Assembly: GCA_963924565.1 (NCBI GenBank)
Contig: OZ004615.1
Location: 15,438,001-15,502,000 of the forward strand
Length of the DNA stretch: 64,000 bases
Direction of reading: 5' to 3'
From: Ascidiella aspersa
Lineage: Eukaryota
Of this stretch, positions 9,101 through 63,385 are shown piece by piece. A program made the translations under genes and the position numbers. Within the stretch, counting starts at the first letter, position 1; the number at the start of each line of letters is the position of its first letter. The notes under the pieces are model-generated. The model did no database searches. It worked only from the letters and a program-made list of their open reading frames with translations, and had not been told where the DNA came from.

Positions 9101-9710
9101 CTACGGACCGGAGGACTTCAACCGAAAGAACGTCATCACCCTAGGACCGGTCAAACGCCTGACCATCGAAACTGTGCCGGACGATCAGATCAAAGTCACA
9201 TATGTCGAAGAAGATGTTGATCTCTACAGGAACGCCAAACACCAAGGTAGGATGCGACTAACTTCAGGTATTCTTTCGTAAAATCGGTTGCTACTAATCC
9301 GCGCCCCACCGCGTTTGCCACCGGCAATGTCTCCAGCATTTTCTATATCCTTTGTTGAAGAATTGCAGGTGGTAGGTGCTGCGGGGTACCTTCGTCAAAC
9401 CGGAAAATGAAAGTTTTTTGTAAATTAGACCCAACTAAATAGTTGTACTAGTCTTAGCTGTATTTACGTGTGCCAAATAGCAAGCATACACATGTTAAAA
9501 GTTTCTAAACTCCCCTTCCATTTTCTAGCCGCCCCGAATGACCGATCGATGTGGAACCCGACCGTGATTGCGGTCGTTGCCGTGATGGGATCACTCGCTT
9601 TCATATGCATCATCATGGCTATCTTTGTAATCGCCTACCGGAGTCGTAGCCATTCCTCCCATAGTGGCGTCTCCCTTTCAGGGATCGGAAACAAGGGCTT
9701 TGTAGCATAA
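3122..9710 (+). CDS. ZP (zona pellucida) module type I membrane protein, 407 aa (uromodulin/tectorin/CUZD1-like ZP-only architecture)
   Basis: Coding exons 3122-3176, 3586-3773, 4425-4606, 4884-5014, 5442-5556, 8537-8708, 9048-9246, 9529-9710. All introns are GT-AG, phases are compatible, and the total is 1224 nt. Signal peptide MKAVFVFLCLYVSSTIAQ. ZP-N has 4 Cys (VCSHG, KKC, SSC, ITC). ZP-C has ECWGT..DP..YPLISDGC, FKFV, WLHCDLQVC..QCEPTC. Then furin site RRKRR, EHP-like ITLGPV, TM VIAVVAVMGSLAFICIIMAIFVIAY and a short tail. Confidence 0.92.
4084..4193. repeat. Inverted repeat / small foldback element in ZP intron 2
   Basis: 24-bp arms CTATAGCGCTCTCTAGCGGTTAAA and TTTAACCGCTAGAGAGCGCTGTAG (1 mismatch), plus an internal partial third arm at 4123-4135. 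Confidence 0.75.
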
Positions 9711-17295: not shown

Positions 17296-17355
17296 TCTTA
17301 ATTTTGAAACACGTAAGTTTAAAACGACTTTTAATTTCACTGAGGATCGACCGAC

Positions 17356-17365
17356 TATTTATATA
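17356..17365 (-). promoter_or_regulatory. TATA box of collectin-like A
   Basis: TATATAAATA on the - strand about 60 nt upstream of the ATG. The paralogue has a TATA at the same offset. Confidence 0.6.
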
Positions 17366-22000: not shown

Positions 22001-22061
22001 TCTTGACAAGCGTTAACAAAACTGCATTACAAACGCTAATAACTCGTGAAAATTGTGGGTC

Positions 22062-23298: not shown

Positions 23299-23709
23299 AC
23301 AGCAGGGGTGGGCAACCTTTTTAACATAAGGGCCAGTTAGGAAATGTAATGCTGACAGGAAGGCCGCACATCAAATGAACACTAATTCATTTTTTCAGTT
23401 TTTACTAGAAAAAATTATGAGCTACTAGGCTGTAACTTCCGCAGTTTTGTCAGTGCTGTCTACTTGTGGATTCGAAAATACCTTTTCCTACCATTCCATG
23501 ACGCCTTTCTCGTACCGATCGGCTCAGTACAATCAAATTAACTGCCTTAATTCAAAACCAGCTGTTAAACATAACATCTTAGTCAAATACGCGTAGCAAA
23601 AATCTGTTACACCTTGACTGTACCAGACAAGTGTAACTGTAGTTATTTTCTAAACGTTGTTTGCCTTCCAAAATTGCTACCAAACAAACTTCATCATCCG
23701 TTGCTTGCC

Positions 23710-23715
23710 TTTATT
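23710..23715 (-). promoter_or_regulatory. Candidate polyadenylation signal of the giant gene
   Basis: AATAAA on the - strand about 215 nt after the inferred TGA. Confidence 0.4.
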
Positions 23716-23930
23716 GTTACACACAAAACAATTTGGTCCATAATGTAAACCACCAATTTGTTTTGACTTGACACGAAAAAGCGAATTATGAAAATGCGTC
23801 GTAAAAGCCTAACGAGATATATCAGTATGTTTAGTGACATATGCAAATGGAATGAACATATAAGGCACAACAATCTTTAGTGACAGCTTATGGCGTGATG
23901 TTATCACAAAAGGCATTTGTTGTTGTTCTT

Positions 23931-26900
23931 TCACGGGGCACTTCCAAGCATCGTTCCATCTGAAAAAATAAGTTTAAATTTGGTTATGTTCAGAACTTTA
24001 GATGGAGCAGGATCAGGCGCCCTTGTATAGGCTGGTTGTTTAAACTATAAAAAATCAAACAATTTTAGGTTAACATTACCAACTTTACATTGTTTTAAGC
24101 TAAACATCCAACTTGGTGTCAGCGCACAAAGAAGCTAAATAGTAAATATTGGGCAACTTTAGCCGACTACTGCACAGTAAAATAATATTGGCATTTTTCT
24201 CCACGAAGCAAGTTTTGAAGTCCCCATTGGTAAATTAAAATTACTTTTGTTTGCGCTTGTAAAAGTCCAAATGTAAACTTTTACAGCAAACGAATGCCTA
24301 AATGCAGAGAACAAATTAACACCTAAAACATTCGGACAGCCTTAATAAACCGAATTTTTGTTGTGGCGCAGATTTCGTCGATTTGGGCAAAACACGAGCA
24401 ATGGCCGACCTATATAGTAATATGGTGTCATGCAAGAAATTTAAAGTATTAAATGACTTTACATATCTAAATTCGCACCTGTTGACAGTATGTTGAAGAG
24501 CTCGTCGCGTACCACTGGCACCTGGCTGTCCAAACCAAAAAAGTTGGTCGCCGTGATTACGCGATTGCTAGTTGCCCCAGCGATGGTCTGCCAAGGAAAG
24601 ACAAAAAATGGAATTGGTTTAAAGATTTCTTAAATTTTGTCACTCCTCCTAGGAGTCAGCGTTTAGTTTGTTGAAAAAACAGGATCGCTTGGTTTCAATC
24701 AGTGGTTTTCAATCTAGGGTCCATGAGAAAGTTTAAAGGGTTATCGCACAACATCGACCAATATTTTACAGGCTAACATTAGGTTATATTAGACAAGAGA
24801 ATAATTTTCGTATTGAATTTTTTTTTTAATTAATCTTTTGGCAGTTTGTGTACACATAGTTTGTTGAAAACCACTGTAAATAAAGATTCATCAACCTAAA
24901 ACGCTAAACAATATGTTAACACAACACTTAAACGGCCAATGTGTAACATGATAACCCAAGAGCCATACAAGGTGTAACCACATACATGGCTTATTAGCTT
25001 GTTGTTAGTTTTTTACAAGTACATATATTCCTTTAGCGTCATTGCCAAATTGGACGCACCACAGAACTATTTTGTTTTATTGCCCTTTAACACAGTCGAG
25101 CCGTGTATTAACAGTTCCCGACAAAAATCCGATGCACTTTCGCAAAATAGTAATTTGCGTTTAACACAAAAGATTACAAGATATGAATTAGAACGCCTTA
25201 AATAAATTTAAAAACGATTTGCACCTGAAGTTCCACAAGACTGAACCCTCGAACTCCGATGGCGATAAAAGTTACTCCGTCACTTTTTGCGGCGTCCACG
25301 CTTGTCTTGAGCAGATTAGAGTCGCTCGATCTAAGTGGGACATCGTAGGGATTAAAATACGCGTAAAGTGTAACTTAGAAGACAGTACACCGAAAAGCCA
25401 TCGCAGACTCGCCGAATCTGTCGATCTATGATGCAAGCAGGGCAGGTCAGAAAAGCAAATCGCCTGCAATCAGGTTCGAACTCACGACCTCCGGTCATAC
25501 CTGGACCGTCGCTCTACCAACTGAGCTACACAGGCTCAGAGAGGAGCGAGTCGAGAAATTACCATACGCCAATGCTTGCTACACTTTGTTAGTACAAGCA
25601 AATTCACAATGAAGGGGATCAACAGTACCGTATCAATCAATGAAAGACACACACACGCATGTGTTTTAATAACAACTGTGATCTAGCCCCCTCGGAAGCT
25701 GCTTTTTGACCAATGATAACGACCTTGATAACGACCTAAGTATCATGGTAGTACACCATCATAGTTACATTTGTCTAACAATGCTAAACTCAGTATGCCG
25801 GCAATTTTTCAATCTCGGCAAAAGTTACAACCAAGCTGACGCAGTTTAAGGTGACTGGTTGAAAGCTTATTAGCTGTCTTAGAGCAGTGTTTCTTAACCC
25901 TTTTTTATCTCATGGCGCACCTGTAATTTTCTAAAATGTTGTACCGCACCTGGTAAGCGAAGCGAACGCGAAATATATTTGGTATATAAGGTACTTCACC
26001 TGATTGCTGGCAAAAGTTTATCACTTATATGCCTATAACAGTCGCATATTTTTAAAGCACTGTGGAATTATTGACCTTAGTCGAATGAGAAGGTGAATTT
26101 ATAAAATTCATGTTTTATGAAACTTTATTTTATGAAAAATGTATATTTTTTTATTTTCCTCACGTACAATAATTCTACATTTTTTGTATTTATTTGAAGG
26201 ATAACTTTTAAAAGAATTTCCAAATCTATAGATCCTAGGACTGCGTATATGATTTTGGGTAGCGCAATTTTTAAAGGTAGTCAAAAAACAAACAAGCAAA
26301 AATGATTTAAACAAAATATTCTGCAGGACAAACAAAAAACTTGCACAAGTGCAAAACAAACAAACAAAAAAAAACACTTACCTTCCATCGGTTATAACGA
26401 TGATGACCTTGCGCGTGCAAGGATTGGTGTATCGGGATGACGAGGGTAGATCGACTTGAATCGCCTTCTGAATGGCACGCGCTGTATAAGTTGTGAACCC
26501 TTGGTGTGCGATGCTGTCGGCCGCGGCCTGAGTGAAAAACGGTGACGGGTGGTTGACATATGGAATGAAATCGACCTACCAATGCCTTCTGGTGTTTATT
26601 ACGCTAACTCGTACTGGTGAATAAAGTAGGCCCTAGTAGGGGATAATATATAACTAGATGTGATTGAGCTTTGTGCTTAAAAGTATATCAAAATACAGTA
26701 CATAGTAAAATATTTAACTATAATAGATAAGCAGAGAAAAGTCTGGTCCCATGTATCACACATCGACTGAACAAACTAAAATTAGACTACTTTTTCGCAC
26801 ACCGGCCCACATTAATACCCTTTAAATATAGTGTTACGTATGTTGGTTTTACACAATATGTTTTTTTACAGTTTTAAAACAACATTTTATGCAGCCTTTA

Positions 26901-29900
26901 AATATCTTGTTTAGTGTTTTTGTTGGAAGCAGAACAAATTTATTTATTCATTTCAGCTCATAAGAAATATCTTTTGACAACTCGCTATTGACTTACGTTA
27001 AACTGTTGTTGAGTCTTGTATTGTCCGAGTACAATTTCAGTTCTCAGGTACTTTTGATCCGTGATAGCCCTTCAAGCGATTTGTTTAAATAAATGTCAAT
27101 TAGGATTTTGTACAGCTTATGATATAAGAAAGTAGCCTAAACCAAAAGTTTGTTTTTAAGAAGCAACGTTTAATATACGAGTTAATATTTTCCCAAAGAC
27201 ATTAATGGAAGTATAAAACAATCTCCTTTCATTTAAAGTCTGCTTGGTAATCGTTATATTCTCTTACTTTGTTTTAGAGTAATGCGAGTATTGGATCACT
27301 CCCACTTGGTTTTTGTTTAGGTCAATGTTATTCACGACCTTCTTCACAAAATCTAACATCTTTCGGAAGTCCGTGTGTCTAATCGATCCTGACCCATCCA
27401 GAAGGAACAAGAGATCCATGTTGTAGGTAAAACATCCTGAGAGAGTGAAAAATAGTGAAAATCTTAAAAGTAATTTTTAATGTTTTACTGTTTATCGAAT
27501 TTGAAACTAACGTAATTAAAAACCCCTGTTGAAAGAGCTATTTAAATCTAATTTTACGCCAAGTATATATTGTAGCTTAGGTATATAGTCATGTTTCACT
27601 CTTCAGAAGTCATGCCAACGTAAATATTTCGGCAGCATTCATAATAAAACAACTCACCATTGGCATCAGTTGTGGAAGAAGGCAGTGTTGATGTCATAGC
27701 TGAAATAAAAGAGTATATTAAGTTTAACACACATAGTTATGACCTACTGTAATTATTATTTATGTAACGTTTCATCTCGATTAGCATAAAGACTCACGTG
27801 GTTTCGTAGGCATTCTTTCAATGGACGCCAGTGCTGCAAAACATATTTAGGTTTCTTACAATACTTTATCGAGAATTTAATTGATGACATTTTAGTTTAG
27901 GATGATTCATATTTTACAGTAATAATAAAAGCTTGGACACTTGTTTGGGCCATCAAAATTTAATCTGCTAGTAAAAATATACGTGGTGAAGCCAAATACA
28001 AGACAACGCAAACAAGAAATTGACACACGTTATCTACTCTACAGTATATACCGTACGAAATAGACCTATACAAAGATAACAGTGCAAGATCGACTACCAC
28101 AAAAGAGTTTCCAGAAATTTAAACGGCAACAACGTTTCCAAAGTGCAGCAGCAAGCCGGCATCGACAATGAAGCCAGACGGGCTAAATATCATTACTAAC
28201 CAAGGCATTTTGGAAGATCAGAATACCGTCGGAGGAGCTTTGGGATTGAGTCCATCATTCTTTGGAGTTGGTCGTAGATACCCGACAACATCGGCAGATT
28301 CTGCCCGAGCTTGGTAAAGTCACATACTCCGGTGTACATACGAATCATCACACTGATAAGGGAGTCGTACGAACTATCACACGGAAAAACGAGAGAATGT
28401 CATGTAAGGTATATAACATAGACCTATACCAAGAAAAGAAGAGAGAATTTCATGTAAGGCATACAACATACATTAATACAACTTTCAAATCCGCATTTTT
28501 TACAATGGTCTATAAATCCGCAAACAAGCATTCGTTCACATCCTCTCGTTACCCGCTCACACTTTTTATTTATTTTTCGAATAGCTAGAGTGCTTTATTG
28601 AAAAAGAAATCCCGTTGGTTATGCTTTACTCGTATTTTACATACCCACAAAACTGCTCAGCGCTGTTGGCGGTCAACATTGTTCTCATAAAGGTGACGGC
28701 CTCTTGCATTCCACCATTTAACTTGCGGATGTTGCAAATCGGATTCTCCTGGCCGGTCATTGCGCCAAGTCCTTGGGTTGCGTTGTCCAGCAGCTCGTCG
28801 ATGAAGCTACTGTTGCTTCCCACACAGAAGGTTTCGAAGGTCGGGTTTGTGAGGCTGGTCATGTTCAAGATGGAATCCGACATCAACTGCACAAAACACA
28901 GCGTTAGAAATGGGCCAAGTGTTGCAATCCTCTAAAATAGGGCTAGCAAACTAAATATACATTATTCTATATCAGCGGTTTCCCAACTTTCTAAAATTTT
29001 TGCCCGGTGGACCCTTTGCAATTATTTTTATGTTTTGCGGCCGTCTATATATTAAAGTGCCAATTGACCCATGTTTCTTGTAGTACACTAGTGTAGTCAC
29101 GAATTTTTCTAATGTAACAAGTTTGTAACTAATGCGGACGATTTTCTGATAGCAGGTAGTACAGCATAATAGATGCTTTTTGGTGTCACAAGGGGCATCA
29201 TAAAACACGCTATATGATCGAATAATAAAGCATAACCAAATACAATAACAATGTTGAAATATAGACTCATGTTTAAAACATTTGCTAGAGCCTAATGTTG
29301 AAAATCTTAAAGACAAATTCTCATTGCGGACGCTCTGAAACTGCTGTATGGACCCCAGTTGGTCAGCGGACCCCAGTTTGGGAACCGCTGTTCTATATTG
29401 TACTCCAGCTTAGCCTAGGTACATACTTGAACATGTTTGATATTACGTTGACGCCTGCTACAAAATATACCTGTTCCACGATTGGAAGTTAGTATTGGAA
29501 TTAGCTGGTTTCCAAGGGAGGGTGTGCCTAATTTAGGGGTTAGTAAACTGGGGGGTGTGAAGGGTTGAGAAGGGGGGCACGAAGAAGTCAATGAAAAATA
29601 ATGTTTTCATTTAATTTATACAAAGTTTTGCTGACACGAATATTTTTTTAAGTATTTTTTAATTTGTGACTGACATACGTGATTTTAATTATATCACTTA
29701 ATCTATTCATCTCAGTGATATTAATCTTGTTTTGCCGTTTCTTATGCTCAGTTACAGTCACCTGAATAGTGAATATGGCAGAATACTTACTATACACACT
29801 GTAGTACAGTGTTGTCAATGACATTACACCGGACCATCCTCACAAACTACATTTTTTCTACTTTCAGTGGATAAATGCACTTTCGTTCGCGTTTCGCTTA

Positions 29901-32900
29901 ACTTTTTTCACATTTGGGTACGGTTTTCCTCGTTTAAAAGAAATTATTTTTAGCTTTAAGGGCCGAGCACACCTGGCATATAGGGATGTACGATAAATTG
30001 GGAAAAAGTTTCGTAATCCTATACGATACAAAATTATTAAAGTAAAGCAGCGTTACGAAGTTTGTAGTTACCTCCCGTTGTTAACTAATTATCTTTATTA
30101 AATGTACCTTTCAAGGTGGGAGCGCTACATTGGATCACAAAACATGGCTAAAGTTCTTATGTTATTTCAGTTTTGGATTAGCAGCGATACCACCCTGGTA
30201 GCGGACAGGTACAGATAGTATTACTTGGAATTATTTATGGACTTAGATCCGATATCATCGAATATCGCAAGTATAGGTGTTATAGATCATAATTTCATAA
30301 TTACATTGTCAAACTAACGTTTTGTTAAATAAAACAATAGGGTGTTTTGACAGTTTTTTTATTTAAGCGCTTAGCACTGTCTATAGTGTCTATGCAAATA
30401 TTTCCATTTATCTAAAACACTGATCATTATGGCTACCATACATATTTAATAGGAGGGCGCGAGCTTTGATAAATTGTGTCAAGGTGGACGCGGCCCAAAA
30501 TATTTAGGAATCCCTGATCTACTGCGTCACGCACATTTTTAAATTGACCGTTTTTCCAATTTAAACCAAATAAACGCATTTCTTTCGATTAGTCTGGATT
30601 TAACATGCATATTGTTGGACGAGAACAATAGTTGTTTTTAATCTTAATGAAGTAACTCACTGCTGAGAAGAAAGTAACTCACGGCTGGTTACACAGTGTA
30701 AAAAGTTACTAACCTTTCCAACGCTTTCAAATCCTGGCGTACCCTCACCAATAGTAGGTTTATTGCCGGTCGAACAGCGATGGACAACCTCGCGTATACA
30801 ATGTTGATAGTAATCCATGTTGGTTCTGCAAGGGCATTGTACACTAACAGGTTAAAACGTAAAACTTAAAATTCCGCTATCATAAACCGGCAGAAAAATA
30901 GATTTAAATTTGCTAATATTTACTAAGGTATGTCATCTGATATTTATAAACTAAAAATAAGATTTAATTAAATGACAGATGTACTCGTTAAGTACAAGCA
31001 CTTAACACTTTGGTCGCCACGAATACCAATAGAAGCCGGTTAGTAAATAAGAGCTTTTACTATATTTTTTGTCTCACGTTAAATACTAATACCAAAACTG
31101 TTACTCTTTTGTCAAAGCAAGTTCATTGAACTGCGTCTTGTGTAAAGTAAAAACACGCAGCACACATACAACAAGATAAGAAATTAGGCCCGCTTAATAG
31201 AATGTTATCTCACCTGCATTCGCCGACATCGCTGTAGGGATAGTCGTTGAAGAAAAGTGTTGAACAAATCCAGCTCTTCTCGTAATACTCCCGGAAAGAA
31301 CATCCGGGAAATAGAGGTACATCGTCCCTTGAAGTCTTATGTTTCGCTGCAACAAAATACTGGCAGTGTTTTTATGGACCCCATAATATTAAACATCGCC
31401 CTAAGATCTTTAAACTGTTTAATGTTACATGATTTTTTTACTTAAATGTTTACTGAAATAGAAAACAAATCAGATGGATTGATATGATTTTCGTGGCTAC
31501 GGACAAGCAACTGCAACTTAACAATTAAATTACAACATCATACTTTATTTGGCTCCATGGCTTTATTCAACCATATAGACCTAATAAAAACTGGAGTGCA
31601 TAACCTAAAATGGCGCAAGAGCCGCAATATGGAAGTACCTTTTTCGTGGGCCCAATACTAACGTAACCCAACAGCCTAAAAATTTAACTTCCAAAGAAGG
31701 TTCTACCACAATCTTATCTTATGATCATGCACAACAGAAAGTTTTTATTTATTTTACATCCTGGTAATAAACCGAATATGTTATTAGTCTACATGGTGGG
31801 CCAGAGCAGTTACAACCACCGGTTACAACACCAGACATTGACAAAAAGCGCTATGAAATGCTGACTGCCCTTGTCAGTAAAGATTTTTTAGGAAAGTCAT
31901 ACAGGCGGTTGTATATAGAAACTAGCCACCTAGTCAAGTAAAATACTTGTAAGTTAATAGTGTGTGACTTTCTGGTTGATTCTCACGACATTTTAATTCT
32001 TATTGTGCTAAAGTCGCAAAACCACTTTTGTCTACATTTTGCTGAAACGTTGTCAATAACAAAAACATTATACTTTTAGTGGTGAAAAAAATAATTATTT
32101 GAAAAACTGGTGTGCTCATAGTGGGGTTCACACCAGGTCCCTAATTTACGAAGTTGCGGTTCTGCATGGGGCGCATTACAAATGGCATGTTGTGCAGACC
32201 TGATCTATTTCTTGGAGAACGGAACGAAACTGAAATGTGATTAAAACGGTTAATTCAAACAATTTGTGTCATATGTACAAAATTGCACTAAACAATGTTT
32301 CGGGTGTATTAAATAAAAATGGTATTCTAAAAATGCTTTAACAGATAGACAAATTTAAAAAGAAGTTTACCAAAAAAACACACAAAAACGTCGAAAAAAA
32401 TTTGCTTACATGTAAGAGTGGTCGTTAGGGTGGTTGCTGGGGTGGCTATTGGAGCACCTTCTCCTTCTGAACTCACTGGACGTTAAAATAAAAAATTAAC
32501 TGGTTCTCAATTAATATTATTAAAAGTATAAGATATAATTATCAAAACTAAGATACATAGATATTTTAGATTTTTGAATCCCAAAACTAGGACGCAGCAC
32601 AAAGTTTACAAAGAAAGTTATATTGTTTGTTCCAGGATGCAGCGAAGGACCGCAAGGTAGCCTACATCCAGTCAACTGCACCCTGCACTAAATAAATGAA
32701 ATCTCGCGGTAAAAACACAATTTTAATAATTTAACTAAAATATCACCGACAGAAATTTTAAATGTGAATTTCTATTTCTATGTGACAATTACCATGTATA
32801 CTGTCTACGATACGACATGTTACAGTATTCCAAATACATGAGATGATTCCGAATGCACAACAATTGGGAATAAATGCAGACAAAACAGAAAAAAGATCAC

Positions 32901-35900
32901 AGCTGATTATCGTTTAGGCCTTACCGACATTGGAGTACTGGTTGTTGCAATAATTTCCCTGGCAACATCGCACTTTGCAATTGTCGAAATTCAGCGGAAC
33001 CCCGATTTGAGAGCTGTCGAAAGTGTTTTGTAGCATTTCACATGTCATGATATAACACACTGAGGTGGGAACACAGAGACCAGTCCACGCACCACCTGTG
33101 AAGAAAGTTATTGACCTATAGATAACTGGCTTCAAGTTCATTTCAGGTGGGGATCAAGGATTTTAAAGGAAGGGCGTGGCAACTTTTTTGTTTGCGTTTA
33201 TTTGGTTTAAATTTTAAATTAACAAAACGAAGGAGGATTTGTTGACGGTTGAAAAAAAAAAGATGTTTGTGCATTTCGCGATAAATTATGGACTTTGCCA
33301 AGATAATATTGACAAACAGATTGTAAGAATCAAAGACTCTACAGCTATATGGTTAACAAGAAATCAGGTGAAAGTTCATACAAAGCGTAAAAAAAATAAC
33401 AAAGCGTTTACTTTGTTTAACTTTCAAAAACTTTTAAACTTTCGTTTACCTTGGTAAAATGTATTCAGTTAATATTCAAGATGTAATGGCCATATTTCCA
33501 AAGATGTTATAGATTCGCGCAAAAGACATTAATAGGCTGGCCGGAATAGCATTTCGGAAAGAGTCGATTCAGCTAGTTGATCTTAATGTTTAAGGCTTCC
33601 AAAGTACACACGATGATTTTAGGTTAACAAGTTCGTCACAAACCAGGAGTTGCCAGCCTGGAGTTAACTATACCAATTGACTAACCGGCCTTGGTGCGAA
33701 ATGATGCCTCGAAGCATGCGTTGCCATCGGAACAGGGAGGTCCTCTAATAGGTGACCCAAATATGGCACTCTCCTCCAAAACAATAGAGTACCCAGTATA
33801 ACAGCTCCTTTCTGAAATGCACATCAATCAACTTTTATCTCTATGTAGTTGTAGGTGCATAACGGTATAAGTAATGCTATTTTTAACTTTTTGCGTTTTC
33901 CTAGAAACCTCAAGCACGCTAATGTAAAGCTTGCATATTTTACAGTATCGCACATACGGGAATAAATATTGCAGTTCCCCTTTAATAAGCACTTTTGGAG
34001 GATACCGAAATTTAAAACCCCAATACAGTCATGATATATATTCTGAGTGTGACTATCATAACAATCCAATCAATGTATCGGATTATACCGATTACACCTC
34101 GATTGTCAGTTTAAAATACGTGTCGTAATAAGGGAGTGTAAATTAGAAAAAACGTTAAAATGATTAAGGATAGCTTAAAAAAGAAGTAACAACCTGTTGC
34201 TTATTTATAGAACTTGAGCGACACTAAGAATTTACAACAGTATAACCATTATTAAGATATACAAACCAATAATTTGTAACAAAATCGGCGTAATAAAAAA
34301 TTAGACTGAAAAGCATTGAAATACTTTTGTAAAACTCCAAACAACGTACTTTAATATAATTCTAGCGCAAATAAAAATTTCAAAATTTTTATCTTAATTT
34401 ATACAACGTAGTCTAAATTGATGGGTCGATTTTATAACTATTTATAATTATTTCGCTGTTTAAGACAAAATCATATGTAAATCTTTGGCTTATATTAAAA
34501 ATTTCCTACCTGATGTAGGGTTGCCACCTACTCCAGGGGATTCCACTCCCACCTCTGTTGGACTCACCGCATCTGCAAAACAACAACAAACCGGTTTCCA
34601 TACAGATTCAAATAAACCCTTGGTTTTCATAAACTGACCAGTGCTTTTTAAGAGTTCATTTGTCACTATATTCGATTTGAGCGGGAGTGTAACAAATGTG
34701 AATATAAAACATGTAACAAAAACGGATATCGCTTACGGTGGGCTCTGCAAAGTAGCAGAAATTAAACGAATTATACAATTTTGAAAAGTACTAATGTTGG
34801 GAACCTAAATCCCTTGTTTTTCCTAACCACAAATACAAGTTGCCATTCTAAATGGCTGGGAACAAATTTCACTGATCAAAACCAGCGATTCGTAAAATAA
34901 CTTATATTTTCACAACAAATGTAAAAGTGTATAGAGTTTAAAAAAGGGCAATCATAAATATCAAACATATCTTAACGAACAATGAAAAACAACGTGTTCC
35001 ATGCGTTACTGATGATTCTTCATGGGACAAGTGGTAGGAGCGGTTCTAATCTAACAAACAGCACACTTACCTAAATCCTCATAGCGATTGTTGCACATAT
35101 CCTCATCGCAGCAGCGCACTTTGCAGCCTGTGAAGTTGAGGGGGGCCGAGGTCGGGGGTGTACTGAAGATGCTCGGCAGCGTATTACATGTCATTATCGA
35201 GCACGTCTCCTTTGGCATGCACTGCGCTGTCCAAGCGGGACCTGTGACGCAAATGGGAAACGGGACAGTAGTTTATAAACTTTAATTTTTTCGTTTTGCT
35301 TTACGGAAGTGCTGCCAATCTATCGTGTCACAATGAGAATAGACGCCGCAGAGAACGGACACCTGCTAAAGGCCTACGGGTATTAACTAACAGGGTTTCA
35401 AGCTATGTTCGTTAACAATATTTTACATACAAAATTTCCGATTAATTTTTCTAATGGTAACACTATATCTGAATGAGAAAACATGTGATATTTCCTGGTA
35501 ATATGGACGGTATGACATGATTCAGAGACTTACATTATACCCTAATATTTAAACAGACTAACGTATTCTCATACAATCAATCACGAAACAATTTCTTTTA
35601 AACACTAAAACAGATCAACACATTTACAAAGCGTTTAGATCAGTGCTTTTCAACCTTCACAATTTCCATCCGCACTTTTTTATTTCGGAAAATTTCCATC
35701 CGCACGAAACAAGCTCAGTAAGTTTGCAACCTTTAGTTTTATTTGTTAAATAACAATGAAGGGGTTTGTGTATTAAAACCGTGAGTCTTAACCGATATAA
35801 AATAGAAAGCTTAAGCTGCAATGAACCACTGAGAGACTATATTACTGTACCTGTAACGCATAAGTGGGCGCACCAGCTTATTTGATAACTGTATTACACA

Positions 35901-53900: not shown

Positions 53901-56900
53901 CAGGTATAAAATATATTGAATACTTACATGTCGCTACAGTTTGCGGTTTGGTGCCGTTCGAGTGTAAATCTGTGAGAATGAAGATAAGGAACAAATAATC
54001 AAAGCCTGTCTGAAACAGTTGTTCGGACAACTTTAAAAATCTCGACATATTAGTCTCAATAGTTATAATTCTTTTAGTTCGTTGTTTATGCAATATCGGT
54101 TCGGTGACATAAAACACTAAACTTGAGAATTAATTTGAATAAATAATATAAAATACCAAGCCCAGATCAAGAAATTCATTGTTCGAGTTCTCAATTATTT
54201 TGTTTCACTTTAACAAAACTAACTTAAACAGTTTTGTGCAATATTCCGTGTGTAAATCAAATTAAATTAACATCAATAAAAGTAGTAAACGTTTACAGTA
54301 AAAATTAAAAGGCACCAAGGTAAAAAGCCATTTTAACGGTTTCCAGTCCACTCATTGCGTACAATTAACAAAGTTTAAAAATTTGTGCAAACTCGCGACT
54401 CTTTACAACACTCAAAGATGGATATAAGCTTTATTTGGCAAGGATCCTGCCCCGGCTATAACACTATATCGAATCAACCAACCGACTGCTGTGTAGCGAA
54501 GCGAGAAGCCGGCGTATTGCACTGAGGAATCGGAAGTAAATTCAAGTTTCAGGAGATTGCTCTCGATGTTATCATACCGGGGACGAGGTCCCGAAGTCGG
54601 TATCAAGAGAACGTTCGGATCACTGGAGCCATTAGCTGGTTTGTAAATCTGAACGTATACATAAACGGCATAAACACTGAGCAGTGATAAGATTTTCGGG
54701 AAGTGAATTGTCTGTGCCATTTAAAAATACCACGCGCTTATTATCGAATTTCAACTTTCAAAACGATAGCTTATCGACCTCCATTACTTTAAAGTCTAAA
54801 GGTTTACAACAAAGGGAAAAAGTGATTTTGTAGATCAATAATTTAAGAAAAGCAATCTACATAGTAAGACAAAATACCACCAGTAAATATTCAAAATAAT
54901 ATTTGTGCCTTCAAGAAGAAAAACAGTCATTTTCCGACGATATTGCTCGTTCACTTAAATAATGTAAGAAAATCACTTTGTGCAAATATCGATAGCGTGA
55001 AAGCTCCGTTATTTAACACATTTTTGCGTACGAACGAACCTTTAGTTTGTCGCAGCAACCTTCGAACGCGAAAGTGGTAAACACGATGTCAATCTGGTAC
55101 CCGGATGGCGCCCGAATCCACCAGGTGCACTTGGCGTTGTTCGGGTATTGTCCCTCGGAAAACCCGGGTGACGTCAGCGTATTAGACGTTCCAGCAATGG
55201 CGGTAAGGTTGACAATTCCACAGACACCTGTTGTGACTAAAAAAATGTTATGCTTTTAATGAGTTTAGAACGTAATTTACGGTACTCTACAGTAGCACGG
55301 AGATTCCTCATATAGGAATTTGCATTGTGCTCCGAGTATTGTTCCAATTTCGTTCCGCGGAAACATAGTTTGTTTCAAAACTGCTAATTTTGTTCCGGGT
55401 TTAATATTCTGAACAAAATTGTTCCAAAATTTTGTGAGACGGAACGATATTTTTGTTAATGTTTGAAGCTATAAATAAACATATCACGGTTACCTGTCAA
55501 GACAAGAACTTCAAAACTTTTAAAATATCGTTTCTAAAAACATCGATATATATCTTTTATCTTTTGCTTAAGGAGTAATAATTAATTATCATGAAACCCT
55601 ATTTAATCATCCTCAATTACCTGCATAAAAACGTTGCATATTTAGGAATTTAATTAAAATGCTGACATTAACCATTATCACAATGGAGGAAAACAATGTA
55701 AAATACGACCGTTCGTTGGCACTTACCCGACTCCACTGTTGTTACGTCGGGTGTTGTTACGTCGGGCGTTTTTGAATCCGTAGCGGACGTAACAGTGCTG
55801 TACGTCACAGCGTTTGTTGACGTCATCGAATTGCTCGCTCTGGCGTCGTTGCACAGGTTCGTTTGGCAACAGGACATGTCGCAGGTCAATAAAACTATAC
55901 CTGGAATCGTGTTCACTAAGCTGCTGCAGTTTTGCTGCTCACAGGCTTGGCTGGGAACGCACATTCCAACTGCCATGTTCACGTCCAAATTATCTGCACG
56001 TAATAAATTGACGTGTGTAATAACTAACAAGCAACTGCTTACAAACAGTTTGTGCTCTAACAGCTGTATGAGCGGTTTAAGAAGTTGCGCTTACTAAATA
56101 ACCATGGAATTACTATTACGTTTAGAGAAATATTATGCTCGTCATTTCATAATTCATTACACAACATATTAGTTTTACCTTGAAAATTTTGTGTAGATCC
56201 GAAATATTTTTATCTGCATTCTTAAACATTGGTCCTTCAGGAAAAACTCTTATTCAGTTGGAAAAAAATATCCTAGCTTTACTTCAAACATGCCACTTGG
56301 TGATTAATAAGTAAACGGGCAGATATAACTTACTGCTTTCTCCCATAGGAATCATTGCTGTTGCGGTCAGTAGCAAACAGCTTTGTCCCGTACAGTCCAC
56401 TCTTGATGTTGTGTTTTGTATAGGTGTACCACTTTTGTCAGAGACTACCTGCATGCTCCAGCAACTCAAGCCACCTGAAAGCAATATATATTGAATTTAG
56501 AAAAACGATGGAAGGAATGACACACATAATTGATTTTTTAAAGAGGAAATATTATGCAATGTAAAAGTTACAAATTAAAGTAAATCTTGCGACATTTTCA
56601 AGTTCTCTTTTAAACGTGGATTTTTTACAAATTTTATCGTGATTAAAAAAAAACAAAAACACAATTGATGGAAAGACAAACAAATCATTTTATTTTTTCA
56701 GTGTTTTTTCTAGGGTCATTACATCAAAAAGCGCTGGCTTATTAAAAATCTTTGTAAATGGCCGTACTTTGTCTAATTCTAAATAGGATAATCAGGTGGC
56801 AATATATAAAGACGTGCCTGTGGATTTATTTGACTTTATTATTCTTATTGCCTTCTACTCGCCCTTGTGTTCTACATCTTGTGCATTTTACTTGCCTTCA

Positions 56901-59900
56901 TTTCTACTTTGACGTGATGAAGCACGGTTGTGCGTAAGAATCAATCAATTTGTCTTATATGGCCACCTGATTACCAGGTTTATTAAAAGGAAATGGCTCT
57001 ATACACTGTTGTTTTTTTAAGTTCATAGGCTCTATCTATACACCATAAACGTGTCCTCTGGTCAAAAAGTCGATACGGTAAATGTGATCCACTGTGCCTG
57101 TTCACATAGCCTTTGGAGGGTTAAACTTACCACCAGCTGTTGTGGCACTTTCAGGATTTGTTGAAGTTGCGTCTATTGGAGTAGTTTGCACAAATTCTTA
57201 AACAGTAAACAAACATAATATTCACTGTTACTATGAAAAAAATATATATGTAGCACATTGTTATTCGGAAAAAGTTGTTTACAAGTTTAGGCCTACCGAA
57301 TTTCTCAAAGCTCATAAAGAGGACAAAAGTACAATACAAATGAAGTAGATTTTATAATCTTGTTTTGGATAATTATGCGCATATACAGCGAAATTTACAG
57401 ACAAAAATAAATACAAAGCAGGCAATTTTATTTGGCAAATTCACACCCTAAATAGTTCGTGTTTTCTTTATTTTTTGAATTGGAAAAATGACTATATCTC
57501 ATGCTGTTGCTGGAAGGTGGTTTGAATTCAATTTGGCGCCATGCCAAATAGTGACATAAAGACACGATTCTGTTAAAACAAGTAAGCAAGCGCAAAAAAT
57601 ATAAATTAGTTTAATTTCCAGTGTTGAAGGACTATTCGTTATTATATGATAAAAAAGGTAGTCGACGTATGCCATGGTAGCCCTGCTTAAATTAGGACAA
57701 GCATAATATACCTTTAAGATAATACAATTGCACATCTACGTGGCCTTTACGGGTTTGAACTTACCATCAACTCTTGTTGTAGTTTCAGGATTTGTTGCAC
57801 TTTGGGGTATTGGAGTTGTATTTTGTGGCATTTCTGCAAAAGTGAACCAACGTATTACACCGTAACAATATCTATAATAATTTATCAATGCTATGTTGTG
57901 AAGTTTAGCAATTTTTCTGACCGAACAAATGTTACCTAAAAAATAAGATAATAATTTATTAGCAAGTGAGAAGAGGGGTTATGCACTATTGGCAATTCTC
58001 ATTTTTTATATCGTTTGTCAACGCGAGTGTTTCTTATACTGAGGCCCGTGATGAAGTTATAAGGTGTAATAAAGTTTTTTTTTTTTTGAACTTTCCTTGG
58101 TATAAAATATATGAGGTATTTCCTAGTTATTCCAACATGTGACAAAGTTTCAGAACTATTTTAGCCTCAGGCGTACTAAAAACAAATTACTGATATAATA
58201 AAACTGGTATATAGTCTATTTAAGATTTGACAATATACATAACATCCCACAGGGTTATTCATACTAAAATAAGCCAAAAAAATATCAGTAGAAAGGTGTT
58301 GATACATTTGGCTCTTGAAGGGTTACACACGATATTTTTTTTATTATAAGTTTACATTTTTACATATACTTTCGAAACTATTCATCACCAAATATATTAA
58401 AATAAAATTATGAAAATAAATAAAATATTTGTTGATCACGTTAATCTTAATAATACTTAAACATTACCAGCTGATACAATTCCTGTGAAACCAGCTCTGG
58501 ATACAGAAGAGTCGGAGGTGAATCGGATCGACAAGTAGTTGCGAATGGACCTCTTCACGAGACCGCCCTGTGCACTTCTAGAATTTTGGAGATCACCGCG
58601 CATCCTTTCGATTTGTTTATCACTATCTATTAGTGTAGCATTGGTGTCATAGAGCTGGAAAACAAAGTATGTTTTAACGGTAAGTTTTACAGCTAACAAA
58701 GCTTGTATGACGTAGTAACTCCTAAATAATCGATTAGAATTGATACCAATGCTGGAATTAGCAATCATGGTATGGTTTGGGTTTTGGGTATAGGCAAAAG
58801 GTAGTTTTTGGCCAATTCAGGTCTTACACCAGCGGGTTTTGGTCTTATACCGATTTAGACCTTATTCCCCTATGTTGATCTTATTCTAAACTGTGTTTTA
58901 TTCCGATGGGGATGTTATGATAATTCCGGTCTTATTACTGGAGTTCAAGTTTTACATAGCCAAACAACAAAAACGCACCAAAGAGCAAGAAAGCTATTCT
59001 TAGTTGCAATAATTGGCGTAATAAATCAATTCTCCGAAGTTGCAAACCAAGCCCGACTCCGATAACTTAAGTCAAGTTTGACCACCGAGTTCAGAGTCCG
59101 GCTGCCACTATACCACCGGTAGTCCTAATAGATAAACTAAAATATGGTGGATTTACAGCACTTCGCTCACAGGGGTGTCATATCACTTGTCCATCCACAA
59201 TATACTCACGTAAATTCCGTCGCAGCAACTCTCCGTGTTGAAAGAGCTGAAGTTAAGTTGAATCTGGTAACCAGTTGGTGCAGTAAAGATAATCCAACAA
59301 TGCGAGTTGGATGCGTAATTCGAGGGATAGTTTTGAGATCTCAATACGACATCTTGGCTAGGAGTGATGTGCACTGTTTGTTGATCGCTTTCGCAAACTG
59401 AACGAATCGTGTATTATATTATGTAATTTAGTACATAAATACACAAAGTGGACAATAAAACATTACCGTAAACAGACATGTTATTATCGACCATGCTAGG
59501 TAAAATAGTCAGTACAAAAAATCAGTGTATTTTTAACCCTTCATTTTTTAAGGTATATGAGTTTTCTTCTTTATTTAAAGACAATTGCAGATACATTTCT
59601 GAAATAATAGAGTATTTAATATATTTTACGATTAAACTCAAATGTTTGGATTAGTAAAACTACATTTTTTTTCGAAATACAGATTACTGCAAAATCAAAA
59701 CTTGTGGCCGTCGTGGTTACTGCAAATAAAAACAAAATAAAAGAATATTGTTATGCATGTTTAATTCAACTCGTTCTGTAATTTTGTTTTTTGTTTCAAT
59801 AAGCGCACGTTTATCATTAGGAAACGTTTTTGTAATCTCATAAACCTACAAGACGAATAACAATGAGCCAAACTAAAAAGCGTTTCAAAAATATAGGTTT

Positions 59901-62900
59901 CATTAAAGCAGGGGTTCCCAACCTGTGAGCCATGGGCCCCTAGGGGTAAACCAGCAATTAAGACATTGTCAGGGTAAAAACAAGCTCAACCATCACATTA
60001 ACTAAATATGTAATAACTAATTAATGTACTATGATGTTTATATCCTTTTATCATTATAACTGTCCGCTACTGTACATTCAAAATTTTGGAAAAATCAGGG
60101 GGCCATTGATTTGTCAAATTTTTCAAAGGGGGGCCATGGTGTAAAAAACGCTGGGAACCCCTGCATTAAATAAAGCGTCATAATGTAGCAAAGCTTAAAG
60201 CAAAAATAGTCTAGCCGTTATACTACGTGTAGTAGATAAGGGAAATTGGTCCTACTAGTCGGTTTCTATAGCGTTTGCTGGTTAAACTTACCATCAACTG
60301 TTGGTGTTGGTGTAGTGTCAGGATTCGGCAAAGTTGTGGTTATCGGAGTTTTTTCTACAAAAGTAAAGTATAATTTTCCACCTTAACTATGTACAGTAAT
60401 CGAATCATGTATATAAGTAGATTATTTATATTTAGGAAAAAAATATGTAACCTTAAGCTATGCCTACCATATTTCCAAATAGCTCAAATGGACAAAAACT
60501 ACAAAACAAATGGAGTTTTACTTTTAAAGAATTTTTTTTTATCTTTTTCGATAAGTAGACGCAATACGCATATACAGCAAAAAGACATGTAAACTAGTAA
60601 AATTTATTAGGCAGATTCACATCCTGAATACTTATGATTCGTTCAACCTTTTAATAGGGAGATAAATAGGCATAATGATACGATCTCAAGAAAAAATAAA
60701 AAATGATTAGAATCGATGCAACTCAACTTTGTCTCATGCCGAAGAGTCACATAAAAACATAACTCTGTTAAAACAAGAAACCCCAATTTAAAAAACAGGA
60801 CATTACCACATTTTCCAGTATTCTGGGAGGACCATTACATTTTTAGAAAAAACGAACAAGTTCTGTGAAAAGAGGATGAATTGTATGAGTATATTAGACA
60901 TTTTTGTCTCAATGTGCCCGTTTTTTCATAGTAATTAAAACCATGGGGTAAAAACGTTATACTACTGTGGTATTCGATCAGCACTGTCACACCCTCGTAT
61001 CCGACATTTTCTGATTATAAGGGAACAAAGATTAATTATTGTTTGGGATGGGATATTTAGATTTACTGTTACGTCATAACGTGACGTGAGAGAACAAATA
61101 ATCGTAAAAAAATTATTCGGTGAGTGAACTAGTGAACAACTATGCAGCCGAAATCTAAATTAATCACATAAAACGCCCTCTGGTGCCTTATATTTGCTTT
61201 AGCAAATCCGTCGCAATAAAATAAGCCTTGAAAGTAAACCAGAGTCTAATTAAATTTTTCTTGTAACAAAAAATCTATGAGGTTCTTTTAATTATCTAAT
61301 TTTTGGCAAAATTACTACACTATGTAAAAATGCTTCAGAACCATTCGCCGCACCCTTATTTAAACTGCTATAGCAAAACAGGTACATTGTCTACCCGTGA
61401 ATTTAGCGTGTAAGTAACAACCCAAGAGGTTATTCATACACTAAAAAAAAAAAATATTACAACTGCTCTTGTAAAGTTGTTTTGTTATGTTTTTGTTCAA
61501 TATATTTTTAGGTATTGTCTTGTATTATGAAAAAATATAAATATATAAAACAACTTCTCTTGTAAAGATACACACCAAAGTTTTGAAAATAAATATCGAG
61601 TTTTTTAATGTATATAAATATTGACGTATGATTTCGAAACACCATTCACCACTGTATAGCTTTAAAAATAAAAATATCAATAAATATAAAGAAATATTGT
61701 AAATAATGTCAGCCCAAACAACACTTAAAATATTACCTGCCGATGCAATTCCTGTAAAACCACGTCTGGATACAGAAGAATCAGAGGTGAATCGGACCGC
61801 TAAATAGTTGTGAGGGGACCTTCTTATGAGACCATTCTCTGCACTTCCAGCGTTTTGGAGATCACCGCGCATCCTTTCGATTTGGTAATTGCTATCTATT
61901 AGTGTGGTATTGGTGTCATAGAGCTGAAAAACAAAGTATGTTTTTAAGGGTAAGTTTAACAGTTAACCAAGGTTGGTCGACGGGTTACATCAGGGGTTCT
62001 TAAACTGGGGTACATGGACCCCTTGGGGGTCCGTGAACTAATCTTAAGGGGTCCATAAAGGCCAAATTGAAATATTAGTGTATATTTTAGGAAGCAATCA
62101 ATTTTTAAGAAAATAGATTAATTAAAAATAGGGTCCGCGGTAAAAAAAGTTTATGAACCCCTGGGTTAGATATTTAGTATGGGTTAAAATTATTATATAG
62201 ATAGGGGTGGGTTAGGGGCAGTGGTGGGATTCAGCCGGTTCGCACCGGTTCTATAGAACCGTCTCACGAAATTTATGAGATCAGCAAACCGGTTAGCACT
62301 ACTGGTTACTGTCAATGGATTTTTGCAACTTATTTCATATTGTTTTTTTGAGATCCAAGCGGCTTACTAGTTTTTTTTAAAATGTGCAATGGTCAAGGTT
62401 GCACATAACAGTCATACATTTTGTTAATTTTTATAATTGTAGTAATTTTCCTTTTGTGATAGGTTGTCTGAAAATTTAATTGTTGCCTCATAAGTACAAG
62501 TCATGAGACGACTGCTGTTGTTATGTGTGGCTGTTAGCAGTGATTTGATTCAGCCTGTTCGCAGTTTGCTACATTCGCTGGAAGCTAGTTGCATCTTGTT
62601 CTTGCAACTACTTTAATTATTTCCCGGAAAATATGACTTTTTGTAACGGAAGCGGCTTAAATATATAACTTTTGTGATGGAACCGGCTGACAAAAAATTT
62701 GAATCCCATCAGTGGTTAGGGGGTAGGCAAAATATTGTTCATTTGTTTTACTGACAATTAAGGTCCTATCCTGACGGGTTTAGGTTTTATTAGGTGTAAG
62801 AGCTGTTTTGATTTTATTTCGAAGGGTGTTTTTTTTTATTCCGACAATTGTGTTATTCGGCTAAATTTTCCGATTACATCGTGTCCAGAGTCAGGCTCCG

Positions 62901-63385
62901 ACCCTGCATCCTTTAGTCCTACGTTCACTAAAACATGGTGGATATGCAGTAATTCACTCAAGTGACTTATCTACCAACAATATACGTGGTTGGAAAATAT
63001 TCCACCTTATGCTATTCCACCTTTACAGTTTCGAGTCCCGAGTACGATTTCGATTTCCTAATCATGGTTTGAGCATGACGATTCCTTTTACTCAAAAAGA
63101 ATTAAATTACTGTTCTTAGGTGACCTAAATAAACCTAAGTGACAAAGTCATTGGCCTAAAACATTGCAACACTGTACAGTGCCCTTAAAATACTCACGTA
63201 AATTCCGTCGCAGCAACTCTCCGTGTTATAATAGCTGAAGTTGAGTTGAATCTGGTAACCAGTTGGTGCAATAAAGATAACCCAACAAATCGAGTACGGT
63301 TTGTAATTCGAGGGGTAGTTTTGAGATGTAAAAGTGACGTCACGGCCAGGTGTGATGTGCACTGTTTTCTCGTCGCCTCCGCAAA
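23931..63385 (-). CDS. Giant mosaic extracellular protein, 5' end outside the window: CUB x11, LU (Ly6/uPAR three-finger) x5, unnamed Cys-rich module, C-terminal VWA (cubilin-like by CUB content, but not cubilin)
   Basis: 63 GT-AG exons join in frame (7823 nt, about 2,600 aa): 63385-63198, 61923-61737, 60354-60292, 59719-59681, 59397-59210, 58654-58468, 57833-57765, 57196-57131, 56474-56334, 55993-55727, 55227-55040, 54648-54483, 53969-53928, 53711-53530, 53162-52982, 52653-52618, 52399-52358, 52099-51921, 50688-50529, 49671-49636, 49409-49371, 49172-48997, 48488-48329, 47464-47405, 47058-47020, 46835-46651, 45951-45804, 45432-45397, 45057-44876, 44718-44571, 44377-44348, 43823-43800, 43594-43565, 43370-43186, 42592-42448, 42181-42113, 41785-41595, 41031-40869, 40563-40364, 39314-39164, 38505-38341, 37947-37795, 37458-37408, 37231-37040, 36699-36529, 36346-36191, 35241-35071, 34572-34510, 33811-33686, 33095-32925, 32475-32410, 31346-31214, 30825-30714, 28886-28645, 28373-28201, 27833-27798, 27699-27658, 27436-27268, 27069-26997, 26527-26382, 25330-25225, 24587-24479, 23959-23931. 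A few micro-exon boundaries (e.g. 59681, 41785) and the last exon are less certain. Confidence 0.85.
24479..27436 (-). CDS. Giant gene: von Willebrand factor A domain with intact MIDAS
   Basis: CFTYNMDLLFLLDGSGSI (DxSxS), VGVIQYS, GFTTYTARAI (T), KVIIVITDGRS (D), GVTFIAIGV, ELQTIAG. Confidence 0.9.
24700..24876. mobile_element. Decayed MITE-like element
   Basis: TIRs CAGTGGTTTTCAA / TTGAAAACCACTG, with no clear TSD. Confidence 0.55.
25461..25535 (-). pseudogene. tRNA-like element (tRNA pseudogene or tRNA-derived SINE head) in a VWA intron
   Basis: Acceptor stem GCCTGTG/TGCAGGC, A box TAGCTCAGTTGG with D stem GCTC/GAGC, B box GAGTTCGAACC, and TTTT just downstream. The anticodon arm is out of register (CGGTC-CAGGTAT-GACCG, no U33) and the T stem has a G:G mismatch. 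Confidence 0.7.
28201..31346 (-). CDS. Giant gene: unnamed Cys-rich, probably helical module (about 220 aa)
   Basis: Exons 31346-31214, 30825-30714, 28886-28645, 28373-28201 join in frame (phases 1-2-0-2-1). Sequence: GCSFREYYEKSWICSTLFFNDYPYSDVGECRTNMDYYQHCIREVVHRC...TFC...PICN...QFCGSYD...GVCDF...PKCL. Confidence 0.7.
28973..29390. mobile_element. hAT-type MITE
   Basis: TIRs CAGCGGTTTCCCAA / TTGGGAACCGCTG and a perfect TSD TTCTATAT. Confidence 0.88.
32925..38505 (-). CDS. Giant gene: four tandem LU/three-finger domains (LU2-LU5)
   Basis: Each domain is two phase-1 exons, C..C..CFE(V/A)S | W...C.P...C..MTC...LNF..CK(V/L)RCC....CN, with 10 Cys. Confidence 0.85.
35641..36011. mobile_element. 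hAT-type MITE
   Basis: TIRs CAGTGCTTTTCAACC / GGTTGGAAAGCAATG, a perfect TSD GTTTAGAT, and four subterminal CATCCGCAC motifs. Confidence 0.85.
38192..38231. repeat. Perfect 15-bp inverted repeat with a 10-nt loop
   Basis: CAACTGATAACACAG / CTGTGTTATCAGTTG. Confidence 0.8.
38652..38934. mobile_element. hAT-type MITE
   Basis: TIRs CAGTGGTTCC / GGAACCACTG, a perfect TSD GTTTAACA, and GCGACCCC subterminal motifs. Confidence 0.88.
39164..55227 (-). CDS. Giant gene: CUB domains 3-11 with mucin-like linker micro-exons
   Basis: Nine two-exon CUB units. Each matches C..SP(N/G)YPxxYxxxxxCxWxI...E(S/A/G/R/L)CCD | ...F(T/K/V/I)(S/T)D......GF. Confidence 0.9.
46058..46530. mobile_element. hAT-type MITE rich in GACTTG motifs; family also at about 11630-12080, 12478-12660 and 18940-19243
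   Basis: TIRs CAGTGTTGTAA / TTACAACACTG and a decayed TSD GTTCTACC / GTTTTAAC. The end sequence recurs inverted at 12478 (AGTGTTGTAAACAAGTCATTTTGAAA) and direct at about 19220-19243. Confidence 0.75.
47281..47344. repeat. Compound (TA)n microsatellite with TGTTAAAT spacers
   Basis: Read directly: TATGTTAAAT(TA)n, repeated. Confidence 0.85.
50930..51678. mobile_element. hAT-type MITE with TAGGGTTG termini, in the CUB5 intron
   Basis: TIRs TAGGGTTG / CAACCCTA, a perfect TSD TTTTAAAG, and TTGACC/GGTCAA subterminal repeats. Confidence 0.85.
55727..56474 (-). CDS. Giant gene: LU/three-finger domain 1
   Basis: LSCW...DCTGQSCLL / GMCVPSQACEQQNC...TCDMSCCQTNLCN has 10 Cys and the terminal CCxxxxCN signature. 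Confidence 0.8.
56789..56973 (+). mobile_element. Dispersed hammerhead-bearing repeat, copy 2 (degenerate core), flanked by a short inverted repeat
   Basis: The core is mutated (GTGATGA, GTAAG). The flanks AATCAGGTGGCAATATATAAAGAC and GTCTTATATGGCCACCTGATT are imperfect inverted copies. Confidence 0.55.
58468..63385 (-). CDS. Giant gene: CUB domains 1-2 (recent tandem duplicate pair)
   Basis: SQNYPSNY..C W.IF.APTGYQIQLNFS..NTESCCDGIY / LYDTN..RMRGDLQN...RFTSDSSVSR.GFTG occurs in both copies. Exon sizes are 188+187 nt in both. Confidence 0.9.
59909..60163. mobile_element. hAT-type MITE
   Basis: TIRs CAGGGGTTCCCA / TGGGAACCCCTG, TSD CATTAAAG / CATTAAAT. Confidence 0.85.
61991..62163. mobile_element. 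Short hAT-type MITE
   Basis: TIRs CAGGGGTTCTTAAACT / AGTTTATGAACCCCTG, TSD GGTTACAT / GGTTAGAT. Confidence 0.82.
62219..62714. mobile_element. hAT-type MITE
   Basis: TIRs CAGTGGTGGGATTCA / TGAATCCCATCAGTG and a perfect TSD GTTAGGGG. Confidence 0.82.

Follow-up and report, generated by a model that had tools for sequence, protein, structure and literature searches.

The 64,000-nucleotide stretch of the Ascidiella aspersa genome analysed here (contig OZ004615.1, positions 15,438,001 to 15,502,000; hereafter the window) carries on its minus strand the 3' half of a giant gene whose CUB, LU (three-finger), X and VWA modules are predicted to form one chain of 5,391 residues (about 591 kDa). The full model comprises 129 exons in the order signal peptide-LU-CUB21-LU-CUB9-LU4-X-VWA-stop, with totals of 30 CUB units, six LU units and one VWA; its 128 introns are all GT-AG and the frame holds no internal stop. 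The protein belongs to an apparently undescribed ascidian family composed of known domains and one unclassified module. A secreted matrix or mucus scaffold, with multivalent, metal-dependent binding outside the cell, is the role we hold to be somewhat more probable than even.

The part of the gene within the window (23,931-64,000, minus strand) consists of 62 phase-compatible exons, against the at least 63 of the original prediction, and of 2,600 codons, as had been predicted. The order CUB2-LU-CUB9-LU4-X-VWA-stop is borne out by the splice model, as are the two ends, a stop at 23,931 and the acceptor furthest 5' at 63,385. The earlier view of a whole protein of ~2,600 aa with 11 CUB and five LU units has to be revised to ~5,390 aa with 30 CUB and six LU units, since the gene extends ~51 kb past the window end, where 19 more CUB exon pairs, one N-terminal LU and a signal-peptide exon are found. 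Exons were identified by six-frame reading, translated searches, splice-site scanning and manual reading; CUB matches seen beyond the window prompted the addition of 120 kb of genome upstream of the gene's window part, with L001-L006 denoting the segments past the window end. Beyond the gene model, the next 70 kb upstream showed no additional CUB, LU or VWA match. Linker and LU exons are in phase 1-1 and CUBs are 1-0/0-1 exon pairs; in total, 58 exons are phase 1-1 and 30 pairs encode CUBs. The signal-peptide exon (L006:605-668, minus strand) was the best of four signal-like ATG exons found; the one at L006:2,414 was judged weaker than that at L006:668. At the other end, the last coding exon with its stop (23,931-23,959, minus strand) has an AATAAA near 23,715 and an RNA variant row at 23,951.

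Transcription was assessed with a same-species RNA run (about 6% of the run) aligned to 23,500-43,490, with six of 30 bins excluded as repeat-dominated. Reads of one orientation cover all 21 exon-bearing non-repeat bins, reaching CUB, LU, X and VWA exons, and depth in the three exon-free non-repeat bins is 0.15-0.32; the orientation fits a minus-strand transcript, assuming the usual stranded library. Among the 40 of 480 variant rows shown, 18 have single-orientation reads and all 18 fall inside model exons. Nine of these 18 variants are synonymous versus 23% expected (p=0.01, unweighted for transitions), and none creates a stop. The gene is transcribed from the minus strand over its 3' 20 kb. 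Its introns also hold high-copy interspersed repeats (25,384-25,720, ~29,090-29,390, 35,640-35,990 and 41,230-41,490) with very high DNA depth and RNA on both strands.

The CUB array runs on the minus strand from CUB1-CUB19 and their linker exons (L005:8,251 down to L001:43), through CUB20 and CUB21 with three linker exons (57,131-63,385; Pfam and exon model), to CUB22-CUB30 with linker exons (39,164-55,236), the last block being collinear with the CUB array of Phallusia mammillata CAB3234598. Pfam recognises CUB in all eight half-exons submitted to it (E 2.9e-9 to 0.18). Each of the 30 CUBs has four cysteines, including one adjacent pair. By alignment column, a Tyr-Glu-Asp-Asp signature is kept in 27 of the 30. 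In CUB domains these residues are a Ca2+ motif for multipoint high-avidity binding, according to passages of PMC10850435, and the columns here are probably equivalent to the canonical Ca2+ positions. A tree of the 30 CUBs yields three starred subtypes, A (CUB5, 10, 13, 16), B (6, 8, 11, 14, 17, 19-21) and C (7, 9, 12, 15, 18), which recur in order along the array and show CUB5-21 to have grown by tandem duplication; the phase-1 introns bounding the modules likewise point to growth by tandem exon duplication. The array also holds a 4,987-bp tandem duplicate in which the sequence from window position 59,691 (to 64,000 and on to L001:677) is 100% identical, introns included, to L001:678-5,664, which makes CUB19 and CUB20 identical. 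This is either a very recent duplication or an assembly artefact, and the CUB count is given as 29-30 because one CUB lies in the possibly artefactual copy. Seven subtype-B CUBs, CUB20 and CUB21 among them, have an RGD within an extended loop. The modules are spaced by short Ser/Thr/Pro linker exons (46 exons, 679 aa, 36% S+T, 13% P) and not by long mucin domains, which corrects the "mucin-spaced" wording of the original prediction.

The six LU units are placed at three positions on the minus strand: LU0 (L005:8,601-9,959), which begins at residue 22, immediately behind the signal peptide; LU1 with a Ser/Thr tail (55,727-56,474; exons 56,474-56,334 and 55,993-55,727); and LU2-LU5 with linkers (32,925-38,505), two phase-1 exons each, from the exon model and RNA. 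All six have 10 aligned cysteines and a terminal CCxxxxCN. Relative to the canonical LU pattern they lack the usual second N-terminal Cys pair and have an extra pair in the C-terminal half. Pfam gave sub-cut-off matches in three of 12 LU half-exons, the best being UPAR_LY6 (E 0.006, in LU1) and Activin_recp (E 0.014). The best score was 17.4 bits against a cut-off of 24.8 for units scanned as half-exons, and the LUs of whole ascidian homologues also stay under the Pfam cut-off (best Activin_recp, 19 versus 20.9), which is likely why the relatives carry "cubilin-like" labels. A structure model of the LU unit of a Clavelina homologue has a predicted local distance difference test (pLDDT) of 81, and in a fold search with VIA its ranks 1-11 of 48,161 chains are all LU proteins, including GPIHBP1, SLURP-2, Prod1, PSCA, CD177, TEX101, CD59 and others, aligned over the whole length (Z 4.5-5.9, root-mean-square deviation 2.4-5.5). 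Foldseek with the same model gave nothing significant (best LYPD6, E 0.64), and PDB sequence searches with LU gave no significant match. With the model being that of the Clavelina unit and not of the protein's own, there is modest support for a three-finger fold in the LU units.

These matches bear on whether the protein could be a growth-factor or protease regulator in development or fertilisation, with LUs like those of activin receptor, LYPD6, uPAR and TEX101 and CUBs like those of PCPE and SCUBE. Such a role appears quite unlikely: weak Activin_recp and UPAR_LY6 matches, CD177, TEX101 and LYPD6B among the fold neighbours, and the same LU type composing Ciona Not1 would agree with it, but all matches are below cut-off or at Z <6, there is no protease domain, and at 590 kDa the chain would be a large one for a diffusible modulator. 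Ciona Not1 is presumably the notochord gene Ci-Noto1. Confirmation of this identity was lacking in the available passages of PMC3034685 and PMC3812116.

Domain X, encoded on the minus strand by four exons within 28,201-31,346 (31,346-31,214; 30,825-30,714; 28,886-28,645; 28,373-28,201), is a newly defined, predicted helical domain of 220 aa with 10 Cys and without a family. A small search showed it to be conserved, at E 2e-68 to 2e-20, in three relatives, namely Phallusia CAB3234598 and Clavelina XP_076821351 and XP_076821352, the last of which has no VWA. The structure model is all-helical at low confidence (pLDDT 51). A Pfam scan of X matched no family, and a fold search gave generic helical bundles only (best Z 6.8) with no specific fold. 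Language-model features place X nearest to the DUF19, CPG4 and DUF1397 clusters at a score of 0.77-0.83, where anything <0.9 is a lead only; X resembles these helical Cys domains in its predicted all-helical character and this feature score, and differs in having neither a Pfam match nor a specific fold match. Word-seeded protein searches returned nothing useful with exon X3 (none of 18 candidates) or the X alignment (none of 1,121), and with the Phallusia X region they found only itself among 384; as this last search missed the known Clavelina relative, these blanks say little. An atlas search with exon X3 gave no usable match and PDB sequence searches with X no significant one. Exons like the first exon of X occur at C2:24,799,990 (C2:24.80 Mb; L024-L025) and C6:951,250 (C6:0.95 Mb; L030); the 50 kb around each yielded no match to CUB, LU or VWA, and X may be a mobile module. 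During model building, an exon X2 acceptor at 30,843 was rejected in favour of 30,825, which is in register with the Phallusia protein; a SEA-like interpretation of the open reading frame at 30,436-30,588 was dropped for want of a place in the phase chain, the sole match in the 204-kb region being a weak one on the opposite strand.

The VWA occupies five exons (24,479-27,436, minus strand), two of which were matched by Pfam, the first at E 1.9e-12. By alignment its metal-ion-dependent adhesion site (MIDAS) is complete, with DxSxS, Thr and Asp at residues near 5,195, 5,275 and 5,309. No C-terminal hydrophobic tail follows (over the last 40 aa the best 19-residue window reaches a hydropathy of 0.64), nor does any of the four CUB+LU+VWA homologues described below have one, and the most hydrophobic window of the full protein lies at the N-terminus. 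The protein is therefore likely secreted and anchorless, in agreement with the predicted secretion and lack of a transmembrane or glycosylphosphatidylinositol (GPI)-type tail. The Ca2+ signatures kept in most CUBs, together with the retained VWA metal site, make a secreted multivalent scaffold likely, and to this extent the original prediction of such a protein is supported. After export, the short and presumably glycosylated Ser/Thr linkers would space the 29-30 CUBs like beads. A single Ca2+-loaded CUB would hold its protein ligand weakly, the array as a whole with high avidity; three-finger units would supply extra protein-binding faces, and the C-terminal VWA would attach the chain, via its metal site, to a partner in matrix or mucus. 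The strand so tethered could serve for capture or cross-linking within a layer outside the cells, whether pharyngeal or gut mucus, tunic or basement matrix. Secretion, Ca2+-dependent multivalent capture, VWA tethering and the extracellular-layer role are all inferred.

The same architecture recurs elsewhere. In the A. aspersa genome a paralogue on the same chromosome as the window, at C9:25,846,022-25,880,700 (L016-L020, plus strand), reads signal peptide-CUB~16-LU-VWA-stop; its VWA is the closest to that of the window among 14 listed from the same genome, and at those VWA junctions that were compared the two genes agree in intron phase. No copy ending in a VWA was found in this genome besides these two. 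The paralogue VWA groups with Phallusia CAB3257342 ("integrin alpha-X-like") at support 100/99. The same LU type also occurs in a CUB-LU-LU gene (C6:25,955,000-25,964,000, C6:25.96 Mb; L034-L035) and an LU-only gene (C1:23,003,000-23,008,500; L038-L039).

A profile of the six LU C-halves run against 1.84 billion proteins gave 31 matches, with the records of 20 looked up. Four of the 31, all ascidian, have CUB, LU and VWA in one chain: Styela clava LOC120343914 (CUB5-LU22-kringles-VWA, about 4,811 aa), Clavelina lepadiformis XP_076822403 (CUB9-LU-VWA) and XP_076821351 (CUB7-LU-X-VWA), and P. mammillata CAB3234598 (CUB-LU-CUB7-X-VWA; partial, "cubilin-like"). Other matches are CUB-LU, CUB-LU-X, LU-VWA, Ciona Not1 (LU3), two cnidarian LU-only proteins and unnamed fragments, with one LRR false hit. 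The closest parallel is CAB3234598, a record presumably derived from mRNA. Its CUBs correspond, in this order, to CUB9, 23, 24, 26, 27, 28, 29 and 30, its LU corresponds to LU1, and across X-VWA 228 of 471 positions are identical with eight gap columns and 12 modelled exon junctions in register. The ascidian CUB-LU-(X)-VWA proteins have in common a CUB array, the 10-Cys LU type, a related C-terminal VWA and no anchor; the protein described here is the longest found (5,391 aa versus 751-4,812) and differs in having LUs at three positions. Module number varies, from CUB30/LU6 here to CUB5/LU22 plus kringles in Styela and CUB7-9/LU1 in Clavelina.

The homologue records are all automatic annotations, "cubilin-like" or "uncharacterized", and no description of a CUB-LU-VWA family or of its accessions was found in the literature covered, most subscription journals and bioRxiv supplements being outside its scope. 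None appears in the available passages of PMC3390340, PMC3034685, PMC3812116, PMC13409769, PMC7401272, PMC10850435, PMC11595613, PMC12212465, PMC10980280, PMC9953650, PMC13635237, PMC6283879 or PMC6109156; searches of the supplements of PMC6109156 and PMC9953650 turned up no cubilin/CUB entries, and in the large Styela file, which may also be truncated, genes may go by different names. The architecture, which the original prediction did not recognise, is a recurrent one, found in the same genome and in Styela, Clavelina and Phallusia, yet none of its bearers is characterised and no well-described orthologue turned up. The family spans three ascidian genera and is probably hidden by automatic "cubilin-like" naming; in its 0.5-MDa chains, predicted to be secreted, LU domains are repeat modules. 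Through the records of its orthologues in Styela, Phallusia and Clavelina, it offers a named candidate among the proteins that may build the mucus net or tunic of ascidians. The parts, and their growth by phase-1 exon shuffling, are ordinary.

Another reading is a soluble innate-immune protein in blood or pharynx, serving in recognition or agglutination and diversified through repeat expansion and exon skipping. The phase-symmetric modules are skippable, the Styela record is named isoform X26, the array has recent duplications, seven related CUBs carry RGD and two collagen-bearing collectin-like genes adjoin. Such a protein is nevertheless improbable here: no lectin or other microbe-binding domain is present, the genome has the mere pair of VWA-ending copies noted above, neighbourhood is weak evidence, and the homologues have 0-1 RGD, so that the motif may be incidental. 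Similarly doubtful is a broader proposal, an ascidian-wide giant "bead-string" recognition family that carries the unclassified, mobile helical domain X, in which LU repeats (up to 22) would sit in a matrix-anchored lattice. Exon skipping and rapid tandem duplication would there diversify the binding surfaces with which the mucus net sorts self from non-self, or food particles.

Several observations weigh against a single metal-dependent scaffold chain. The Glu-Asp spacing of the CUB Ca2+ site spans the adjacent Cys-Cys pair, and its assignment is by our own alignment. In Styela the MIDAS of the VWA is degenerate, which means that not every family member can rely on metal-dependent anchoring, and Phallusia CAB3234598 has no LU block (LU2-5) before X. 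The RNA comparison covers the part of the gene 3' of 43,490; no splice joint of the gene is among the 15 of 102 RNA joint rows shown, all of which come from repeats. Implied exon depth is 8-20x over LU5-X-VWA and 3-10x upstream, a drop which fits 3' bias and also shorter or skipped isoforms. The lack of joint reads and the step in depth 5' of LU5, along with the similar CUB context that both LU0 and LU1 precede, would be consistent with two adjacent genes (signal peptide-LU-CUB21 and LU-CUB9-LU4-X-VWA), or mainly short isoforms, merged by the model. This is very unlikely, as a scan between CUB21 and LU1 revealed no signal-like first exon, the sole candidate inside the gene overlaps with the linker exon at 49,409, phase-1 linker exons reach to within 657 bp of LU1, and in the Phallusia protein a CUB precedes the LU1-like unit within one chain.

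Other features lie on either side. Two tandem collectin-like genes (15,700-17,360 and 20,040-22,010, minus strand) have a short collagen stretch under the Pfam cut-off (E 0.002 and 0.0006), followed by exons that are C-type-lectin-like by eye, with no Pfam match on single exons. A ZP-domain gene (~3,500-9,710, plus strand; Zona_pellucida E 1.3e-6) has a basic cleavage site and a membrane helix near its end, and short tandem repeats at 13,380-13,990 yield low-complexity open reading frames. Beyond the 5' end, broken Penelope-type reverse transcriptase/GIY-YIG-like copies (L006 ~3,700-8,000, minus strand) lie ~3 kb upstream of the first exon, a reading made by eye with no Pfam match for the frame tested. 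Further out, LDLa-repeat plus seven-helix receptor-like frames were seen by eye (L007 ~5,900-7,400 and L008 ~700-1,200, minus strand).

Among known systems, the array can be compared with that of cubilin. Cubilin combines 27 CUBs with eight EGF-like domains, lacks a membrane helix, and owes its anchorage to amnionless, to which its N-terminal coiled-coil/trimer region binds (passages of PMC6283879). Both proteins have a very long anchorless CUB array with Ca2+ signatures, 27 versus 29-30 here. A cubilin-type scavenger, held at an absorptive epithelium by a membrane partner through VWA or X and endocytosing captured proteins, can be envisaged on the strength of this likeness. It is nonetheless an unlikely role: LU0 directly after the signal peptide leaves no room for the trimer region, no EGF-type pattern occurs in the full model, where every exon is assigned to another module, nor do Pfam scans of the four CUB+LU+VWA homologues show EGF, and bead number differs widely among ascidians. 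The CUBs here are, unlike those of cubilin, split 21+9 by an LU, and LU, X, VWA and Ser/Thr linkers stand in place of the trimer region and the eight EGF repeats. Membership in the cubilin family fails, and the protein would work like cubilin or DMBT1 only as a long avidity array.

Most known LU domains belong to receptor ectodomains or to small proteins that are secreted or GPI-linked. With the Ly6/uPAR superfamily (CD177, uPAR, TEX101, LYPD6, GPIHBP1; Ciona Not1) the LUs share the CCxxxxCN end, 10 Cys and the two-exon phase-1 module, but they lie below every Pfam LU cut-off and inside a giant chain without a GPI signal. Multi-LU chains are known (PMC11595613), none with CUB and VWA in its available passages.

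The proposed scaffold can also be compared with DMBT1/hensin, the Oikopleura oikosins and Ciona GFM1, likewise secreted modular mosaic scaffolds; DMBT1 is a secreted modular protein with glycosylated spacers. It differs from them in having no SRCR, ZP, VWD or cystine-knot domain in its model, and the passages available on DMBT1, oikosins and GFM1 describe no CUB, LU and VWA in one chain. Gel-forming mucins and VWF are marked by VWD assemblies, a long PTS domain and a cystine knot (passages of PMC6109156); the exon inventory has none of these, and its linkers are short. CUB and VWA occur in separate Oikopleura house proteins, the oikosins (passages of PMC3390340), a distribution which does not test a structural role for the Ascidiella chain and makes one plausible.

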